A DNA stretch of 64,000 nt from Myxococcota bacterium (GTDB lineage Bacteria > Myxococcota_C > UBA6777), in the NCBI GenBank assembly GCA_023150835.1, contig JAKLKB010000024.1, forward strand, positions 4,534 to 68,533, given 5' to 3'. Below the pieces are notes generated by a model. The model was given only the letters and a program-made list of their open reading frames with translations. It made no database searches and was not told the DNA's origin. A program made the position numbers and the translations under genes. Positions within the stretch are counted from its first letter, which is position 1. Every line of letters begins with the position of its first letter. This document shows, one piece after another, positions 10,487-56,075 of the stretch.

Positions 10487-12763
10487 TCAGCGCTTGGCAG
10501 GTTGTGGCAAAGCCCGATGTTCCGAATGGGTGGCTGGGTCTGCGGCTTTGGCTACCACAAGCCGCTTGAGAGCCAACGCCGCGCTAACGCGTACTTCGTT
10601 ATCTGTGTCCTCAAGAACCTCCTTCAACGCGGAAAGCACTTCTTTGGAACCCACCCCCACCTCGCCCAAGGCTTTTGCTGCGTTCTTGCGAACCAAACCA
10701 TCTACGTCGCTGAGGGCGAAGATCAGCGCAGGGATCGCCGCACGAGCTTCTCCCTTCATCTTGCCCAGCGCCACGGCTGTATCGTGGCGCAGTTTGTTCT
10801 CCGCGTCCTTGAGGAACCGAACCAAGGTCGGGATCGCTACACGAGCTTCCACACCTATCCCACCCAATGCCTGCACAGCATTTCTGCGAACCTCCCCGCC
10901 CTTGCGTCGAAGAGTTGAAAGAAGCAACGGCACCGCCGCCACCCCCATCTTCCCCAAGGCCCACACGATATCTCGGTGAACCCAACTTTCCCCGTCCTCA
11001 AGCCCCCGAATCAAGGCTGGAATCGCTTCTTTGGCTCCCACTCCCATCTTCCCCAAGGCCAAGGCCGCTCCCTTACGAGCGAAACTCTTTTTGTATTTGA
11101 GCGTCCGAATCAAGGCTGGGAGCGCGGCTTTTGCTTTTCCTCCCATCTTACCCAAAGCTAGGGCCGCATGATAGGAGACGACGCCATCTTTATCCTTGAG
11201 AGTTCGAATCAAGGCAGGGATCGCAGAAGTGGCCTCAACGCTCATTTCCCCCAAGGCTTCGGCCACATCCTTACGAACCCCGCTATCCTTGTCTTTGAGT
11301 AACCGAATCAATGTAGGGATCGCGGCTTTGGCTTCCGCCCCCATCTTCCCCAAAGCCCTTGCCGCGCTCCTGCGAACCCAGTAATCCCCATCACCGAGCG
11401 CCCGAATCAAGGCCGAGAGCGCAGCACGAGCCTCCGCTCCCATCCCAACTAACGCCTTCGCTGCATTCCAACGAACATCGCTATCCGTGTCTTGTAGGGC
11501 TGCGATCAACGTCGGAACCGCCAACCCGCCGATCATTCCTAACGCCGATGCCGCGTACAAGCGAACGAAGCGATCTCTGTCCTTGATCGCCTGAGCCAGA
11601 GCAGGGATCGCCACATGGGCCTCCCTTCCGATCCTTCCCAACGCCTGTGATGCACTCAAACGAACGTTGTTATCCTTGTCTTGGAGAGCCTGAATCAGCG
11701 CAGGGAGCGCCGATCGAGCCTTCCTTCTCATACCCCCCAACGCAAAGATCGCAGCGTCACGAACATCGCTCTCCGTCTCGTTCAGCAGTCGCAACAGCAA
11801 CGGCATCGCTGCATCGGCCTCTGCCTCCACCCCGATTTGCCCCAACGCAAAGGCTGCTTTTTTTTGGACATCCTTCTCTTTGTCTTGGAGAGCACGGAGC
11901 AGGGCTGGAATGGCTGCCTTCGCTCTTGCTTTCATCTCGCCTAGAGCCTCCGCTGCACCAACACGAACCTTTTTGTCCTTGTGTTGGAGGGCCTTGATCA
12001 GCGGCGCAACCGCTTCCTCGCCCATCAAACCCAAGGCCCAAACACCTCCCCTGTGATCGTCGCTGTTTGGGCTTTGAAGGAGTTCGATCAACAGCGGTAT
12101 CATCCACTCGCCCATCTTCCGCAAGGCCAAGGCTCCACGAACGCGGATCTCGCGATGCTTTCCTCTAATTTGATCAAGGAGGACAGGCAGCGCACCTTTG
12201 GCCGCCACACCCATCTTCGCTAACGCCTCCGCTGCCTCCAAGCCCACGTCGCGTTCTGGATCATCAAGAGCCGTGATCAGGGATGGGATCGCCTTCGTTC
12301 CTATTCGGCCCAAAGCATAGACCGCGCCCTTACGGACCAGACGTTCATGGTTCTTGAGTGATTCGACCAAGACAGGGAGTGCCGCATCTGCCGACTCTCC
12401 CATCAAACCCAAGGCCCACACAACACGAGCGCGAACCTCCCCGTCTTTGTCCTTGACTGCTTGAACGAGCGCTGGGAACGCTGCACGAGCCTTCGGCCCG
12501 ATCTTTCCCAACGCCCATGCTGCATACGAACGCACAGAGCGATCCCTGTCCTTGAGCGCCCGAATCAGCGCTGGGATCGCCGCTTTCGCCTCTTTTCCCA
12601 TCCTCCCCAAGGCCCACGCTGCGTTTACGCGGGCTGAACTCTTCTTGCTCTGAAGTTGTTTTTGTAGGCCGATAATTCGGTCGGTATTGCCCGCGTGAAC
12701 TTTGGGGGAGAGGATAGTCAAGAGCCAGACAGCCACAAAAATTCGCCATCCTTGCTCCTGCAT
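10487..12763 (-). CDS. Secreted HEAT-repeat (PBS-lyase type) protein, ~20 repeats
   Basis: Repeating VRxxAAxALGxIG units; signal peptide begins at the internal Met (MQEQGWRIFVAVWLLTIL); the ORF is open to 12880. Confidence 0.6.
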   Translation of the reverse strand: MQEQGWRIFVAVWLLTILSPKVHAGNTDRIIGLQKQLQSKKSSARVNAAWALGRMGKEAKAAIPALIRALKDRDRSVRSYAAWALGKIGPKARAAFPALVQAVKDKDGEVRARVVWALGLMGESADAALPVLVESLKNHERLVRKGAVYALGRIGTKAIPSLITALDDPERDVGLEAAEALAKMGVAAKGALPVLLDQIRGKHREIRVRGALALRKMGEWMIPLLIELLQSPNSDDHRGGVWALGLMGEEAVAPLIKALQHKDKKVRVGAAEALGEMKARAKAAIPALLRALQDKEKDVQKKAAFALGQIGVEAEADAAMPLLLRLLNETESDVRDAAIFALGGMRRKARSALPALIQALQDKDNNVRLSASQALGRIGREAHVAIPALAQAIKDRDRFVRLYAASALGMIGGLAVPTLIAALQDTDSDVRWNAAKALVGMGAEARAALSALIRALGDGDYWVRRSAARALGKMGAEAKAAIPTLIRLLKDKDSGVRKDVAEALGEMSVEATSAIPALIRTLKDKDGVVSYHAALALGKMGGKAKAALPALIRTLKYKKSFARKGAALALGKMGVGAKEAIPALIRGLEDGESWVHRDIVWALGKMGVAAVPLLLSTLRRKGGEVRRNAVQALGGIGVEARVAIPTLVRFLKDAENKLRHDTAVALGKMKGEARAAIPALIFALSDVDGLVRKNAAKALGEVGVGSKEVLSALKEVLEDTDNEVRVSAALALKRLVVAKAADPATHSEHRALPQPAKR

Positions 12764-12861
12764 CCTCTTCCATCGTCTCGTAAAAATCCGATGCGTCGTG
12801 CTTTCCATCGAATGTTTCTCCTTTGGTAGGCGAACCCTGATTAGAAACCTCACGGCTTGGC

Positions 12862-14550
12862 CTAAATCGGTGTGATCCAAAGGGCAGAAGTGGGATGGTG
12901 GCCTTCAACGATATCGCGGGTGAGCGTCAGGGTGCGGATGCCTTCTCGCGAAGGGATCTCATAGAGGATATCGAGCATGAGCTCTTCGAGGATCATGCGC
13001 AATCCGCGTGCGCCGACTTTTTGGCGCAAGGCTTTTTCCGCGATGGCATCAAGGGCTGCCGGTTCAAAGACAAGCTGGACGCCTTCAAAGGACAACATCT
13101 GCTTGTATTGGGCGACGAGGCTGTTTTTGGGTTCCGTCAAGATCCGCACCAGCGCCGCATGATCGAGCGGATCGAGTGTTGCGCATACAGGCAACCGCCC
13201 GATCAACTCGGGCAACATCCCGTAGCGAACGAGGTCTTCGGGCAAGACTTGTCGGAGTAGATCGTCGGTGGATACGACCGATGCAAGCAGATCGCCGATC
13301 GCTTGTTCTTGCCCTGCAAGGCGGCGAGCGATGATCTCTTCAATGCCTACGAAGGCTCCACCACAGATGAAAAGGATGTTGGATGTATCGATCTGTACGC
13401 CCTCATCGCCTGATTGGCTGCGCCCCCGTGTACCCGGCAGGATGGCGCTTGTACCTTCGAGCAGTTTGAGCAGAGATTGTTGGACGCCTTCACCGGAGAT
13501 ATCCCGTGTGGCCGAAGCGGAGGGCTTTCGAGCGATCTTGTCGATCTCGTCGATGTAGAGGATCCCCCGTTCGGTTCTTTGCTTGTCGCCTTCTGCCGCT
13601 TGGTAAAGCCGCGTCAACATCTGTTCGACATCTTGGCCGACGTAGCCCGCTTCGGTCAGCGATGTCGCGTCGGCCATCGCAAACGGAACATGCAGACTGC
13701 GCGCAAGAGATTGTGCCAACAGCGTCTTTCCTGTGCCGCTTGGCCCGATCAACAGCACATTCGATTTGTGCAGTTCAACCCCGTAAGCAGGGCGCTTTTG
13801 CATGTATTCCACACGGTGATAATGGCTGTACACGGCCACCGCAAGTTTCTTTTTGGCCTGTTCTTGGGCGATTACATACCGATCCAGAAACTCCTTGATG
13901 GCGCGTGGGGTCGGAGCGTAGCCACAAGGGCGCTTTGGCAACGGAGGCGCGGAACGCACAGACGAAGAAGGCTCCTCGTGTATCGGTTGCGAAAGCGGCG
14001 TAGGCTCCTCGTGTATCGGTTGCGAAAGCGGCGTAGGCTCCTCGTGTATCGGTTGCGAAAGCGGCGTAGGCTCCGCGTGCATCGGTTGCGAAAGCGGCGT
14101 AGGCTCCGCGTGTATCGGTTGCGAAGGCGGCGTAGGCTCCGCGTGTATCGGTTGCGAAGGCGGCGTAGGCTCCGCGTGTATCGGTTGCGAAGGGGAGGGA
14201 TGGAGGGGGGGGCCATCGTCGGGGGTCAAAGAGCGAAGGGTGAGCGGGTGGTTGTCCGCATCTTGCGCGATGAAGGGTTGGATCGATCGGGCTTCGGAAG
14301 ATGCAGGAAAATGCACGCGTCGATGAGGGGCGATATCCTTCAATGTTCGGAGCCTTTCGTTTGGGTGGGGTGGTGGGCGATTTGATCCGTTGCCGATCCC
14401 GAATGTACGACAGTAGGTGGTTTGAGCCGAGTGTACGACAGTGGGCGATTTGAGCCGTTGTCGAACCCGATCGTACGATAGTGGGTGGTTTGGGCCGTTG
14501 TCGAACCCGATCGTACGATAGTGGGTGGTTTGGGCCGTTGTCGAACCCAA
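12862..14550 (-). CDS. ClpX-like AAA+ unfoldase paralog lacking the N-terminal zinc-binding domain; its N-terminus is encoded by tandem DNA repeats (true start uncertain)
   Basis: IKEFLDRYVIAQEQAKK, Walker [27 protein letters not shown] and the sensor-2 region align with the ClpX at 42313; the CxxC zinc-binding domain is absent; 8x EPTPLSQPIHE (33-bp units) precede the ATPase domain. Confidence 0.6.
   Translation of the reverse strand: MGSTTAQTTHYRTIGFDNGPNHPLSYDRVRQRLKSPTVVHSAQTTYCRTFGIGNGSNRPPPHPNERLRTLKDIAPHRRVHFPASSEARSIQPFIAQDADNHPLTLRSLTPDDGPPLHPSPSQPIHAEPTPPSQPIHAEPTPPSQPIHAEPTPLSQPMHAEPTPLSQPIHEEPTPLSQPIHEEPTPLSQPIHEEPSSSVRSAPPLPKRPCGYAPTPRAIKEFLDRYVIAQEQAKKKLAVAVYSHYHRVEYMQKRPAYGVELHKSNVLLIGPSGTGKTLLAQSLARSLHVPFAMADATSLTEAGYVGQDVEQMLTRLYQAAEGDKQRTERGILYIDEIDKIARKPSASATRDISGEGVQQSLLKLLEGTSAILPGTRGRSQSGDEGVQIDTSNILFICGGAFVGIEEIIARRLAGQEQAIGDLLASVVSTDDLLRQVLPEDLVRYGMLPELIGRLPVCATLDPLDHAALVRILTEPKNSLVAQYKQMLSFEGVQLVFEPAALDAIAEKALRQKVGARGLRMILEELMLDILYEIPSREGIRTLTLTRDIVEGHHPTSALWITPI
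14395..14545. repeat. ~45-bp tandem repeat (ccgttgtcgaacccgatcgtacgatagtgggtggtttggg) x3 at the 5' end of the ClpX-like ORF
   Basis: Direct reading. Confidence 0.7.
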
Positions 14551-14552
14551 GG

Positions 14553-16031
14553 CTACAACATCAGCGGCGACAAGACAGGGACGGTGTGGGGTTGTTCGGG
14601 GGGGCCGCCTGTGACGTAGAGCAAGAATTCCCCTTCGGTGGAGATGTGGTGTTTTTGGGCGAGGGTGGCGGTCAGTTGATAAGGGTCGTCAAATTGTTCG
14701 GGTGAGACCTGTGTGGTTTGGACGCCCCAACACAACGCAAGACGGCGACAGATCGCGGGATCGGTTGCGGCGGCAAGGATGGGAGCGGCGGGGCGTTCAC
14801 AAGAGATCATCACAGCGGTTTGTCCTGTGTGGGCGGGGACGATGATCGCACGAACGGAAAGCTCGCGAGAGAGTTGTGCGGTTCCACGGGCGATGGCTTC
14901 GCTGATCTGGAGGTCGCGGGTTTTTTGGCTGGTGGCGGGGGTGGGGTGCTTGACAAGGTCGCCGAACTGGCTTTGTTGCCATTGATGCCCTTCGACCATA
15001 CGCAGCACACGGCCCATCGTCTGGACGGTTTCGATGGGGTAGAGTCCCGAGGCGGTTTCTGCGGACAACATCACCGCGTCGGAACCCGCCATCGCAGCGG
15101 CTGCAACGTCCGTCACTTCAGCACGAGTCGGGCGAGGGCTTTGGATCATCGACTCCATCATCTGTGTTGCGACGATGACTTGGCGGTTGGCTTCGATGGC
15201 TAGGCGGATCATGCCTTCTTGGAGTAGGGGGACTTCTTCGGCGGGCATCTCTACGCCCAGATCGCCGCGTGCGATCATGATGCCTTGCGAAACTTCGAGG
15301 ATCGGACCGAGGTTTTTGACCGCCTCAGGCTTTTCGATCTTGGCGATAATCGGGATATCCACCCCTTCTTCTTTTAATAGAGCTTGCAGATCAAAGATAT
15401 CTTCAGGGCGGCGAACAAATGACAACGCAAAGTAATCCACCCCCAGCCGAGCCGCAAAACGAGCATCTTCTCGATCTTTTTCTGTGAGCGCTGGCGTAGA
15501 AAGCGAAACTCCCGGAAGATTCAACCCTTTGCGATTGGTCAACCTCCCTCCCACCCGCACCACGCAATGGATCTCGGTCCCTTCGACCTCGCGGACTTCC
15601 AGCATCATCTTTCCGTCGTCCAACAGCATCTTGTCGCCCCGCCCAACATCTCCCGCAAGTGCCGCATACTCCGAAGGAATCAGCCCTCTTTCACCTTCAA
15701 CGGGCCGCACCGTCACAGTCACCGCTTCGCCTTTTATCAGATCGATCCCCCCCTCTACAAAATGCCCAACGCGGATCTTGGGACCGCACAGATCCGCCAA
15801 GATCGCAACATGGCAGCCTTTTTGCGCGCTGATCTCTCGGATCCGATGCAACACTTCGGCGTGCTGTTCGTGCGTTCCATGCGAAAAGTTCAGGCGAAAC
15901 ACATCCACCCCCGCCTCCACAAGCTCCGCAAGGACCGCTGCTTCGCGGGATGACGGACCGACCGTTGCGATGATCTTGGTGCGGCGATGGATCAACGCTG
16001 TGCGCGATAAATCGAGTGCAAGAGGTCTCAT
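14553..16031 (-). CDS. pyk: Pyruvate kinase
   Basis: RRTKIIATVGPSS, FRLNFSHG and MVARGDLGVE motifs; true start at MRPLALDL (16031); the ORF extension to 16457 merely translates REP copies. Confidence 0.85.
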   Translation of the reverse strand: MRPLALDLSRTALIHRRTKIIATVGPSSREAAVLAELVEAGVDVFRLNFSHGTHEQHAEVLHRIREISAQKGCHVAILADLCGPKIRVGHFVEGGIDLIKGEAVTVTVRPVEGERGLIPSEYAALAGDVGRGDKMLLDDGKMMLEVREVEGTEIHCVVRVGGRLTNRKGLNLPGVSLSTPALTEKDREDARFAARLGVDYFALSFVRRPEDIFDLQALLKEEGVDIPIIAKIEKPEAVKNLGPILEVSQGIMIARGDLGVEMPAEEVPLLQEGMIRLAIEANRQVIVATQMMESMIQSPRPTRAEVTDVAAAAMAGSDAVMLSAETASGLYPIETVQTMGRVLRMVEGHQWQQSQFGDLVKHPTPATSQKTRDLQISEAIARGTAQLSRELSVRAIIVPAHTGQTAVMISCERPAAPILAAATDPAICRRLALCWGVQTTQVSPEQFDDPYQLTATLAQKHHISTEGEFLLYVTGGPPEQPHTVPVLSPLML

Positions 16032-16080: not shown

Positions 16081-16510
16081 GGGGGCCTGCCCCTACGAAA
16101 CACCGTGTGATTTCCAATACGTAGGGGCAACCATGTGTGGTTGCCCTGTTGCTGGGGTTCGTTCAAAACGTGTGATTCCCAACACGTAGGGGCAACCCCC
16201 TGTGGTTGCCCTGTTGTTGGGGTTCGTTCAAAACAGACGGCGATGAAGAGGTCACCGACGCAACAGATCGAGGGCAGGCACACCTGTCTGCCCCTACGAA
16301 GCACCGTGCGATTTCCAATACGTAGGGGCAACCATGTGTGGCTGCCCTGTTGTTGGGGTTCGTTCAAAACAGACGGCGATGAAGAGGTCACCGACGCAAC
16401 AGATCGAGGGCAGGCACACCTGTCTGCCCCTACGAAACACCGTGCGATTTCCAACACGTAGGGGCAACCAGGTGTGGCTGCCCTGTTGTTGGGGTTCGTT
16501 CAAAACAGAT
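16081..16510. repeat. REP-like family A variant array (~3 units of ~130 bp, each with two hairpins: GGGGCAACCnnnnnGGTTGCCC and GGGCAGGCACACCTGTCTGCCC)
   Basis: Direct reading. Confidence 0.8.
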
Positions 16511-40650: not shown

Positions 40651-42138
40651 CTATGGCAAAGAAGCATCTGGAGCGTCGTTGGGGTGGATGGGCCGTTCGG
40701 TGCCTTCGGAACCGTCGATTGGTAGGGGTTTTTCGTCTTCGGTTTTTTCATCTTCGGGTTTTTTGTCGCTCTCTTTGTCGCCGTCTTGAAAGGCTTCAAT
40801 CTTGCGATAGATGGTGCGGGTGGCGACGCCAAGGAGTTGGGCGGTGAGTTTTTTGTCGCCCTCAGTGCGGCGGAGAGTTTCGCTGATGACGTGGCGTTCG
40901 ATCTCATCGAGCGGAGTCCCAAAGGGGATAATAAAGTAGTTCCCATCGGTGTTGGTTTGATGGACTTCGGGCGGGAGATCGGAGGGTTTGATGTGTGTGC
41001 TGGGAGCGAGGACGACAGCGCGTTCGATCACATTTTCGAGTTGGCGGACGTTGCCGGGCCAAGCGTATTGCTTGAGGATCTCGATGGTTTCTTTTTCGAG
41101 ATGCAAAAGGGGCTTGCGGTTTTTTTGGGCGTATTTGTCGAGGAAATGTTGAGCGAGCAGGGGGATATCGTCGGGGCGTTCGCGCAGAGGGGGGATATGG
41201 ATCTCGATCACATGGAGTCGATAGTAGAGGTCTTCGCGAAAACGGCCTTGTTTGACTTCTTGGCGGAGGTTTTTGTTGGTTGCGGCGATCAGGCGGATAT
41301 CGATGGGGGTGGAGAGTGTACCGCCGAGCCGCTCAATCCGACGGCTTTGGAGGACACGCAGAAGCTTAACTTGTACGCTGGGCACGATCTCGCCGATCTC
41401 ATCGAGGAAAAGGGTTCCTGCGTGGGCCAGCTCAAATCGACCGGGCTTTGCGTTGTTTGCGCCCGTGAATGCGCCTTTTTCGTAGCCAAAGAGTTCGCTA
41501 TCAAGGAGGGTTTCAGGAAAGGCCGCGCAGTTGAGGGCGATGAACTTTTGATGGCCTCGGTGACTCAGGCGATGGATCTCGCGGGCGATGAGTTCTTTTC
41601 CTGTGCCGGACTCGCCTTGGATCAAGACGGTTGCGTCGGTGGGAGCGGCTTGTTTGACGATATCCATCGTGCGTCGGAGGGCTGGGCTTTGGCCGACGAT
41701 CAAGGGGGTTTCTTCGATATCTTGGAGGCGTTGTCGGAGATGTTGGTTTTCTTGGAGCAAAGAGGAGCGGTCAAGGGCTTTTTCGACGAGTTTGAGGATA
41801 TCGCGGCGTTTGAGTGGTTTGGTGATAAAGTCGTACGCGCCTTGTTTGATCGCTTCGACAGCGCGCTCGATGCTGCCGTAGGCGGTCATGGTGATAACTT
41901 CGGTGTGTGTGGAGATAGCTTTGATCGCTTTGAGCAAGGATAGCCCGTCCATTTGGGGCATCATGATATCGCACAACACCACATCGATCGGATGTTGGCG
42001 AACGAGATCCAAGCCTTCTCTCCCGTTTGCTGCGGTGAGTACGTTGTAGCCTTCGCGTTGAAAGATACGGCTCAACGATTCGACGTTTCCGGGTTCGTCA
42101 TCGACGATTAGGACGGTGTAGCTGTGTGCGTTTTGCAA
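40651..42138 (-). CDS. Sigma-54-dependent response regulator (NtrC family: REC, AAA+ sigma-54 activator, HTH) with an acidic C-terminal tail
   Basis: Receiver D-box, GESGTGKE Walker A, GAFTGA loop, ESELFGYEKGAFTGA. Confidence 0.8.
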   Translation of the reverse strand: MQNAHSYTVLIVDDEPGNVESLSRIFQREGYNVLTAANGREGLDLVRQHPIDVVLCDIMMPQMDGLSLLKAIKAISTHTEVITMTAYGSIERAVEAIKQGAYDFITKPLKRRDILKLVEKALDRSSLLQENQHLRQRLQDIEETPLIVGQSPALRRTMDIVKQAAPTDATVLIQGESGTGKELIAREIHRLSHRGHQKFIALNCAAFPETLLDSELFGYEKGAFTGANNAKPGRFELAHAGTLFLDEIGEIVPSVQVKLLRVLQSRRIERLGGTLSTPIDIRLIAATNKNLRQEVKQGRFREDLYYRLHVIEIHIPPLRERPDDIPLLAQHFLDKYAQKNRKPLLHLEKETIEILKQYAWPGNVRQLENVIERAVVLAPSTHIKPSDLPPEVHQTNTDGNYFIIPFGTPLDEIERHVISETLRRTEGDKKLTAQLLGVATRTIYRKIEAFQDGDKESDKKPEDEKTEDEKPLPIDGSEGTERPIHPNDAPDASLP

Positions 42139-42312: not shown

Positions 42313-43563
42313 ATGTCCAAACAGAAAGGCCAATCGAACAAGCGACTTAGCTGTTCGTTTTGTCACAAGAACCAACATGAAGTACGAAAGCTGATCGCTG
42401 GACCCAACGTATACATCTGCGATGAGTGTGTGCAACTGTGCAACGACATCATCGCCAACGCATTTGACCCCGAAGAAGCACGCCCGTCACTGGATATCCC
42501 CAAGCCGATCGAGATCAAAGAATTTTTGGATCAGTACGTCATTGGTCAAGATCTTGCGAAAAAAGTCCTGTCTGTCGCGGTGTATAACCATTACAAGCGG
42601 GTCGAATGCCGGCCTCGTACGGGGGAAGTCGAACTTCAAAAGTCGAATATCTTGTTGGTGGGACCGACAGGTTCAGGGAAAACGTTGCTTGCACAAAGCC
42701 TCGCACGTTTTCTGGACGTGCCTTTTGCGATGGCCGATGCAACGACCTTGACCGAGGCCGGTTATGTCGGCGAAGACGTCGAGAATGTGTTGGTGAGCCT
42801 ATTACAAGCCTCGGATTACAAGCTGGAGCGAGCCGAGCGAGGCATCGTATACATCGACGAGATCGACAAGATCGCTCGAAAAAGTGAATCCGCTTCGATC
42901 ACTCGCGATGTTTCTGGCGAAGGCGTTCAACAAGCCTTGTTGCGGATGCTGGAGGGGACGGTTGCCAATGTCCCCGCCAAAGGGGGCCGCAAACATCCCC
43001 ACCAAGAGTTTATCCAGCTCGACACCACGAATATCTTGTTTGTGGTGGGCGGAGCTTTTCACGGCATCGAGAAGATGATCGAAAAGCGGATCGCAGGAAG
43101 TCAGATCGGATTCCATGCGACTGTCCGTAGCAAGAAAGACTTTCGACTGGGTGAGCTTCTGCATCAAAGCGAACCCGAGGACCTAATTAAGTTTGGTTTG
43201 ATCCCCGAGTTTGTTGGACGCTTGCCTGTGGTGGCCACGATGGATGATCTCGACGAAGCCTCTTTGCTTCGTATCCTCAAAGAGCCTAAAAATGCGCTGG
43301 TTCGGCAGTACGAAAAACTCTTTATGATGGAAGGCGTCGCGCTACACTTCACCGAAGAAGCGCTCAAGGCGATCGCCAAAAAATGCATGGAACGCCAAAG
43401 CGGCGCACGCGGCTTGCGCGCCATCATGGAATCCGTCATGCTCGACGTGATGTACGATCTCCCCTCCCTTGAAGGCGTCAAAGAGTGCATCATCGACGCC
43501 GACGTCGTTCTCCATAGCGCCCCACCCACCATGATCTACAAAGAACACAAAAAATCCGCTTGA
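42313..43563 (+). CDS. clpX: ATP-dependent Clp protease ATP-binding subunit ClpX (canonical, with zinc-binding domain)
   Basis: CSFCHK...CDEC zinc-binding domain, [18 protein letters not shown]. Confidence 0.9.
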
Positions 43564-55719: not shown

Positions 55720-56075
55720 CGCTTATCGTGTGCGTCAAAATGTAGGGGCAGCCCCCTGTGGCTGCCCGACCACAGGGCGTCTACAGCGGATCGCTCCTAT
55801 CCTTCGAACACACATTTCTAGGATATCGCATGATCCGAAATCCGCCTATCGTGTGCAATATGTAGGGGCAGCCCTCTGTGGCTGCCCGACCACAGGGCGT
55901 CTACAGCGGATCGCTCCTATCCTTCGAACACACATTTCTAGGATATCGCATGATCCGAAATCCGCCTATCGTGTGCGCCAATATGTAGGGGCAGCCCTCT
56001 GTGGCTGCCCGACCACAGGGCGTCTACAGCGGATCGCTCCTATCCTTCGAATACACATTTCTAGGATATCGCATG
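55720..56075. repeat. REP-like family A array, three ~120-bp units
   Basis: Direct reading. Confidence 0.85.

Follow-up and report, generated by a model that had tools for sequence, protein, structure and literature searches.

Among AAA+ protease motors, ClpX is the textbook example, and what bacterial ClpX does independently of ClpP has been poorly explored. Here we analyse a second ClpX encoded in a 64-kb stretch of a metagenome-assembled genome (MAG) from a 'Myxococcota bacterium' (GenBank assembly GCA_023150835.1, contig JAKLKB010000024.1, positions 4,534 to 68,533; this whole stretch is called the window below), which also carries a canonical clpX. In canonical complexes, the IGF loops of ClpX are the contacts that dock into the clefts of ClpP, as resolved by cryogenic electron microscopy (PMC7112952), and a single substitution in the IGF tripeptide abolishes proteolysis by ClpXP while the ATPase stays functional (PMC12211083). 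ClpP-independent ClpX is known from engineered IGF mutants in firmicutes and from mitochondrial ClpX without ClpP (PMC12211083). These cases concern the canonical protein, which in bacteria has its zinc finger, and represent either a second mode of action or a laboratory mutation, whereas in the paralog described here the loss of IGF is natural, fixed across a clade and joined to a new N-terminus.

The nearest studied analogue is ClpX3 of Myxococcus xanthus (MXAN_2743, WP_026113955.1; Wan et al. 2024, PMC11423568), which is dispensable and weakly transcribed, with induction in stationary phase, and whose deletion leads to heat sensitivity at 36 °C (PMC11423568). Like the paralog, ClpX3 is an extra, isolated myxobacterial copy, located away from clpP, in which the Cys-rich domain of the N-terminus and the RKH motif are missing. 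Unlike the paralog, it is only 356 aa long, has no N-terminal extension and is 43.5% identical to Escherichia coli ClpX. Its primer-derived termini (a start at MESSAR, a junction reading LLTPRE and an end at TQLDV) do not display the P-C-x-x-A-P-x-P motif of the clade to which the paralog belongs, and on these termini ClpX3 may be a separate lineage. The IGF loop receives no mention in the ClpX3 paper (PMC11423568); its presence there is worth asking about, given the heat-stress phenotype.

What is new at this locus is a natural ClpX lineage that is without the ClpP-docking motif and has a repeat-encoded, predicted disordered N-terminus bearing a conserved head motif. Comparison of homologous loci establishes that the gene is predicted to encode a full-length, selected 493-aa AAA+ ATPase of the ClpX family that lacks the zinc finger, IGF and RKH. 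The clade is a natural test case for the activity of a ClpX ring on its own and for the rebuilding of specificity from a short motif on a disordered tether.

A ClpX motor without the ClpP-docking hallmarks

Several comparisons place the paralog within ClpX. First, its NCBI protein, P0001, scores 489.6 bits against the NCBIfam equivalog model NF003745 (cut-off 359) and 471.8 bits against TIGR00382 (cut-off 370.75); these matches span only model positions 58–403 and 59–409, respectively, leaving the zinc-finger part unmatched. Second, residues 203–558 of the longest open reading frame (ORF; 562 aa) align in BLASTP with residues 53–409 of the canonical ClpX of the window at 56% identity (E=6e-135), in agreement with the description of a second ClpX with a well-conserved AAA+ module in an earlier note on this DNA. 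Third, canonical bacterial ClpX structures, including those from E. coli and Neisseria meningitidis (PDB 8e91, 6sfw and 6vfs), belong to the same AAA+ fold family, with E values of 4e-116 to 5e-110; the module is collinear with them, and the matches include Listeria monocytogenes ClpX (6sfw, E 4e-116) and E. coli ClpX (8e91, E 3e-113). Mitochondrial CLPX is a distant match, at 282 bits.

HslU is a sister AAA+ family that is likewise without a zinc finger. It matches the paralog only in part (1e-44). The paralog has no I-domain insertion and no hslV nearby, and against TIGR00390 it reaches 191 bits, where the cut-off is 362.45.

The motor itself appears complete. The paralog shares with canonical ClpX the Walker A and B motifs, the pore-1 GYVG, the pore-2 region (intact as TRDISGEGVQQ), the Arg finger and sensor 2 (Table 1). 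Its relatives, the 11-member clade described below, also keep Walker A and B, pore-1 as GY[V/I/M/T]G, the Arg finger and sensor 2, and the catalytic motifs are unchanged across them save for two Walker A positions (GSSGTGKT in P0005, and Thr or Ser at the fifth residue). Over the first 150 AAA+ codons, comparison with the orthologous locus L002 gives 54 synonymous and 17 non-synonymous codon changes, a count by which the AAA+ part is under purifying selection.

By contrast with canonical ClpX, the paralog has no zinc finger, reads IGD in place of IGF and RSQ in place of RKH, carries a 136-aa predicted disordered extension and shows no linkage to clpP. The loss of the zinc-binding domain, which the earlier note had read from the letters, holds in profile searches: PF06689 (zf-C4_ClpX) has no match in the 562-aa ORF at E<=0.01, where only AAA_2, AAA and ClpB_D2-small are found, and it is present in the canonical copy alone (residues 13–48, E 5.3e-19, together with AAA_2, AAA and ClpB_D2-small). 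Nor does an unrecognised upstream ORF supply a zinc finger, an outcome that the earlier note had allowed for: the pyruvate kinase gene pyk ends at 14553, and no frame between it and the AAA+ module contains a CxxC pair.

The docking loop, which the earlier note had proposed to inspect, lacks its tripeptide. The segments GIGFGATV of E. coli and QIGFHATV of the canonical copy align to QAIGDLL in the paralog, whose loop is three residues shorter, and the segment GGRKHP aligns to RGRSQS. The motif scan took in the 11 clade members and, for comparison, 30 diverse ClpX sequences, of which 27 have a zinc finger. In the loop, [ILMV]G[FY] is missing from every clade member (0/11), P0007 reading LGL, whereas the tripeptide is present in 29/30 comparison sequences (27 by regular expression, and P0203 with IGY and P0225 with IGF by eye), the only one without it being P0188. 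RKH is lost in the subclade to which the paralog belongs, which has RSQ; the more distant members P0006–P0010 and L005 still have RKH or KKH. The paralog is thus ClpX by family models, yet on its sequence it fails three hallmarks of a ClpP-activating subunit, and the finding flags an annotation problem. The expectation of the earlier note that adaptor and substrate specificity would be altered falls short of this picture, in which there is probably no canonical partnership with ClpP at all.

Reading frame and translation start

The longest open frame runs from a TTG at 14550 to 12862 on the minus strand, and the earlier note took it as the gene. Seven in-frame start-like codons lie 5′ of the AAA+ module: TTG 14550, TTG 14343, GTG 14316, TTG 14229, ATG 14082 (within a repeat unit), GTG 13959 and TTG 13941. 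We compared the orthologous loci L001 (protein P0002, 86% identical), L002 (P0003, 71%) and L003 (P0004), and this comparison indicates that the coding sequence is likely 12862–14343, the translation of which equals P0001 except at the initiator residue.

Two features of the alignment mark this start. TTG 14343 and the next 13 bases are without change in the window, L001 and L002, and the arrangement of ACGAAAGG, a 9-nt spacer and TTGAAGGATATCGC is near-invariant in these three loci; the GAAAGG within it is a putative ribosome-binding site. Further 5′, the alignment collapses, with L002 differing from the others by 5-nt and 22-nt indels. On the other side of the start, the first 41 codons differ between the window and L002 at 6/7/23 sites in codon positions 1/2/3; of the codon changes, 14 are synonymous and 11 non-synonymous. 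This is the pattern expected of translated DNA.

Use of the full 562-aa frame is very improbable. The frame is open from 14550, and gene callers picked long upstream starts in L001 and L002. That reading would, however, require translation of a 40-bp tandem repeat. As 40 is not divisible by 3, the frame would shift from one copy to the next and the copies would give three different peptides; this repeat is not present in L001, L002 or L004, and the two indels also fall in this region. GC content by codon position is flat over 14344–14550 (0.55/0.57/0.58) and structured in the AAA+ part (0.65/0.42/0.63), and TTG 14550, only 3 nt past the pyk stop, leaves a ribosome-binding site no room outside pyk. 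These 207 nt, including the 40-bp repeat, are most likely intergenic and untranslated.

A start close to the KRPC junction, at TTG 13941 or GTG 13959, would instead give an AAA+-only protein of about 357 aa resembling P0005, with the extension as an open 5′ leader. Consistent with this, P0005–P0010 carry between zero and about 25 residues before the PC..AP.P junction, the second residue of P0005, a Leu, falls on TTG 13941 in the alignment, and the sole upstream ATG falls inside a repeat unit. We nevertheless consider it improbable. Neither codon has a Shine-Dalgarno-like sequence ahead of it; the 41 codons after TTG 14343 carry the codon-position bias and the synonymous changes described above; about 400 nt of frame have been kept open in four genomes in spite of repeat turnover; the linker repeats have periods divisible by 3 throughout; and the length of the extension is held at 128–136 aa.

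Table 1. Features of the paralog locus and of the canonical clpX (window coordinates)
Feature	Position	Strand	Remarks
ClpX paralog, most probable coding sequence	12862..14343	-	493 aa + stop; TTG at 14343-14341
Shine-Dalgarno-like GAAAGG	14353..14358	-	9 nt 5′ of TTG; ACGAAAGG unchanged in three aligned loci
Conserved head motif, residues 1-41 (MKDIAPHRRVHFPASSEARSIQPFIAQDADNHPLTLRSLTP)	14221..14343	-	codon-position bias against L002
Acidic Pro/Ser/Glu/His-rich linker, residues 42-136	13936..14220	-	predicted disordered
33-bp tandem repeat, in frame, 11 codons per unit	13969..14191	-	Tandem Repeats Finder: 6.8 copies, 97% matches, score 404
Junction motif KRPCGYAPTPR (invariant P-C-x-x-A-P-x-P)	13903..13935	-	clade-specific
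ClpX-type AAA+ module, large and small domains	12865..13902	-	Pfam AAA_2 1.7e-30, ClpB_D2-small 4.7e-10
Walker A GPSGTGKT	13723-13746	-	intact
Pore-1 GYVG	13636-13647	-	TEAGYVG at residues 230-236, intact
Walker B ILYIDEID	13540-13563	-	intact
RKH-loop equivalent GRSQSGD	13405..13425	-	RKH replaced by RSQ
IGF-loop equivalent QAIGDLL	13285..13305	-	docking tripeptide IGF replaced by IGD
Arg finger GRLPV	13186-13200	-	intact
Sensor 2 GARGLR	12997-13014	-	intact
40-bp repeat	14373..14548	-	pyk-clpX spacer; 2.9 good copies + one degenerate
Pyruvate kinase gene (pyk)	14553..16031	-	directly upstream of paralog, conserved neighbour
Canonical clpX	42313..43563	+	416 aa; zinc finger, RKH and IGF all present

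A conserved head motif on a repeat-encoded linker

From the probable start, the N-terminal extension consists of three parts: head, linker and junction. The 41-residue head, MKDIAPHRRVHFPASSEARSIQPFIAQDADNHPLTLRSLTP, is kept in P0002 and P0003, and its core, PAS..E...QP[FL][IL]AQ[DE]A, is still recognisable in P0004. As judged from its codons, the head is under codon-level selection in the closest relatives. The earlier note saw the N-terminal domain as replaced by repeats; in-frame repeats are there, preceded by this conserved head.

Proline makes up 30.5% of the linker, Ser 12.6%, Glu 10.5%, His 8.4% and Thr 6.3%, with 12 Asp and Glu against a single Lys or Arg and with 8 His, so that of the Pro/Thr-rich character first assigned to it the proline stands and the threonine does not. 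Its in-frame 33-bp array is real, at 6.8 copies instead of the eight of EPTPLSQPIHE counted by the earlier note: the units encode EPTP[P/L]SQP[I/M]H[A/E], with seven SQP[I/M]H and six EPTP, and successive members of the family keep a 33-nt register. Elsewhere in the 64-kb window the unit is absent.

The linker sequence itself is not conserved among orthologs. L001 has 2.5 copies of a homologous 33-bp unit and 2.2 copies of a 24-bp unit, L002 has 15/30/45-bp units coding for SVDSP-like repeats, and L003 has no linker repeat and a shorter extension. As the earlier note anticipated for a repeat-encoded N-terminus, the repeats thus differ between related genomes, and the periods in the window, L001 and L002 are without exception multiples of 3. 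From the TTG to KRPC, the extension measures 136 aa in the window (13936-14343), 128 aa in L001 (8046-8430) and 135 aa in L002 (8190-8595). This near-equal length, despite unrelated repeat units, hints at selection on the length of a tether and not on its sequence.

Scans of metagenome contigs yielded no additional strains in which to compare the repeat copy number: the exact DNA pattern around the conserved start had 0 matches, and for the subclade segment A5 the best among the matches listed was 54% identical, all of them canonical ClpX. AlphaFold2 gives residues 1–140 predicted local distance difference test (pLDDT) values <50 and no secondary structure, in a model that is weak overall (mean pLDDT 56.6 from a 12-sequence alignment) and unsuited to a fold search.

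The junction that joins the linker to the motor is a signature of the lineage. Its P-C-x-x-A-P-x-P is unchanged in the aligned clade sequences and is also found in L005, and canonical ClpX is without Cys at this position.

A small, old clade from uncultured Myxococcota

In a protein search, ten sequences without a zinc finger (P0001–P0010) rank above thousands of canonical ClpX; their AAA+ modules are 60–100% identical. From a genome scan came an eleventh member, L005, whose 418 aa include a long insert without IGF. In a neighbour-joining tree of 40 sequences and 352 columns, the 10 paralogs included form a clade in 200/200 bootstraps, and the subclade of the window, P0001–P0005, is recovered in 196/200. 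Taken together, the alignments demonstrate a monophyletic clade of 11 sequences from uncultured Myxococcota ('Deltaproteobacteria' MAGs), in none of which a zinc finger or IGF is predicted. Its nearest neighbours in the tree are P0188 and ClpX of Thermoanaerobaculia rather than the canonical copy of the window, which means that the paralog did not arise by recent duplication of the resident gene. The clade is old.

The clade is also small and rare, as far as homology searches reach. An exhaustive profile search over 1.84 billion representatives returned the P0002 cluster as the sole clade representative, followed by canonical ClpX, fragments and P0186, and no other zinc-finger-less, IGF-less ClpX cluster ranked near the clade. 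A genome contig scan with A3, a clade-specific 67-aa segment, found among the matches listed only two new clade loci, L004 (from the P0002 species) and L005; its pattern, AK[KR]KL[AS]VAV, was swamped by canonical ClpX of Acidobacteria. Profile search of a 5.8-billion-protein collection with the same segment returned only fragments of 71–118 aa and no known clade member, and it has no value as a census.

The age of the clade bears on the possibility, raised in the earlier note, that the gene is a pseudogene. A decaying clpX duplicate stripped of its functional parts would account for the joint loss of zinc finger, IGF and RKH and for the weak TTG start, and transcription of clpX3 in M. xanthus is very low (PMC11423568). 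We regard decay as extremely improbable, given a full-length ORF that is intact in at least 11 sequences from several genomes, invariant catalytic motifs, the excess of synonymous over non-synonymous changes between the window and L002, the age and monophyly of the clade and the conserved synteny with pyk.

Two other sequences stand out near the clade. The ClpX P0188 keeps its zinc finger and is missing the IGF tripeptide and RKH (reading GGGKTP), and it may be an intermediate in a series of losses. P0186, the top match of the clade profile (729 bits over 3 stretches), is a protein of 1238 aa in which a single chain combines three ClpX-like AAA+ modules in tandem, without zinc finger, IGF or RKH; by analogy, it looks like a natural counterpart of engineered single-chain ClpX trimers.

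Proposed function

With its docking tripeptide lost, the paralog probably acts alone and not as part of a protease. The reading that we favour, and consider probable on the sequence comparisons, is that of a ClpP-independent hexameric unfoldase, a stand-alone remodelling chaperone in which recruitment has passed from the zinc finger to the tethered head motif. The protein would assemble into a hexameric unfoldase and translocase; canonical docking onto ClpP would not be possible, so the ring would remodel or unfold its substrates independently of ClpP; and the head motif, on a flexible tether, would take over from the zinc finger the recruiting of a partner, adaptor or substrate. The predicted mode, unfolding or remodelling with no hand-over to ClpP, corresponds to the phenotype of engineered IGF-mutant ClpX. 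A more specific proposal, which we put forward tentatively and consider rather doubtful, is that ClpX has here been turned into a free-standing unfoldase that works as a 'fishing line', its folded zinc-finger adaptor domain exchanged for a short conserved linear motif on a disordered tether whose repeats turn over by expansion and contraction while its length stays at about 130 residues. If true, this AAA+ motor would recruit its partner or client in a new manner.

Alternatively, the paralog might still be a partner of ClpP, either through non-canonical docking by its IGDLL loop or by entering mixed hexamers with canonical ClpX, rings with fewer IGF loops and zinc fingers that would tune the activity or specificity of ClpXP. 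The [I/L]G[D/Q]LL loop is conserved in P0001–P0005, with LGL in P0007; the 56% AAA+ identity to the co-resident canonical ClpX makes mixed rings conceivable; and the three clpX genes of M. xanthus show transcriptional cross-compensation (PMC11423568). A continuing partnership nevertheless seems unlikely. Asp or Gln occupies the position that enters the hydrophobic cleft of ClpP, P0006, P0008–P0010 and L005 have no tripeptide-like motif whatever, single IGF substitutions abolish ClpXP function (PMC12211083), and clpP is linked to no clade member.

Several observations weigh against the stand-alone, tether-guided unfoldase that we favour. The conservation of the subclade loop, and the LGL of P0007, make a non-canonical contact with ClpP or with something else conceivable. 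The poor AlphaFold2 model turns low N-terminal confidence into only weak evidence for disorder. Distant clade members are almost without an N-terminal extension, and the idea of a head motif on a tether covers P0001–P0004 only. TTG 14343 is a weak start whose use is drawn from the comparison of three loci alone. Finally, pyk apart, no conserved neighbour points to a client.

The 40-bp repeat of the pyk–clpX spacer

The earlier note placed a second repeat, of 45 bp and three copies, within the N-terminus. Its period is in fact 40 bp, at about three copies, and it lies upstream of the probable start: Tandem Repeats Finder reports 2.9 copies at 14433-14548, and a separate repeat finder extends the array by a degenerate copy from 14373. 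The repeat was not found elsewhere in the 64-kb window. Because it is also missing from the orthologous loci L001, L002 and L004, it is, by this comparison, a recent local expansion. The predicted RNA fold of the spacer is no better than that of shuffled sequences (z=-0.07), a promoter and terminator scan gave counts near those of shuffles, and Rfam has no match in the whole window. Each full unit bears a weak sigma-70-like pair, TCGACA-18-TATCGT, and the units could add promoters ahead of the paralog.

Genomic context

The order of pyk followed by the paralog is kept in L001, L002 and L004. In L003 (GCA_020633035.1, 1808-7182), about 6 kb are inserted between the two genes, encoding IS605/TnpB (Cas12f-like TNB), TetR, GntR and an aminotransferase. 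Distant clade members stand alone between genes for a K+ channel and a thioredoxin-like protein.

The earlier note remarked that clpP is adjacent to neither copy, and this extends to the entire 64 kb: no clpP was found by motif regular expression, and tblastn with E. coli ClpP gave a best E of 1.6. Beside clade members at the other loci examined, clpP was likewise not found. Adjacency in a tig-clpP-clpX arrangement is not strictly defining, as the canonical copy of the window also has no adjacent clpP; it is preceded by neither clpP nor tig, and a sigma-54-dependent response regulator (40651-42138, minus strand) lies divergently upstream of it. M. xanthus carries three clpX genes, and by analogy a further clpX may lie beside clpP elsewhere in this genome.

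Directly downstream of the paralog, on the same strand, lies a gene for a protein of about 773 aa that consists of HEAT repeats for nearly its whole length (10487-12808, minus strand; 17 HEAT_2 stretches, E 2e-185), with a hydrophobic segment at its N-terminus. We rejected it as a functional partner: it is probably present in L001 and L004 and is not found in L002, L003 or the distant members. The PADLOC anti-phage models gave only generic AAA+ P-loop matches (IetA, 7.8e-10 over about 90 residues). Just upstream of pyk, at 16087-16506, is a 136-bp tandem repeat of at least three units, with weak copies at 55856-56010; each unit combines a terminator-like stem with a GGGGCAACC...GGTTGCCCC hairpin and has no match in Rfam.

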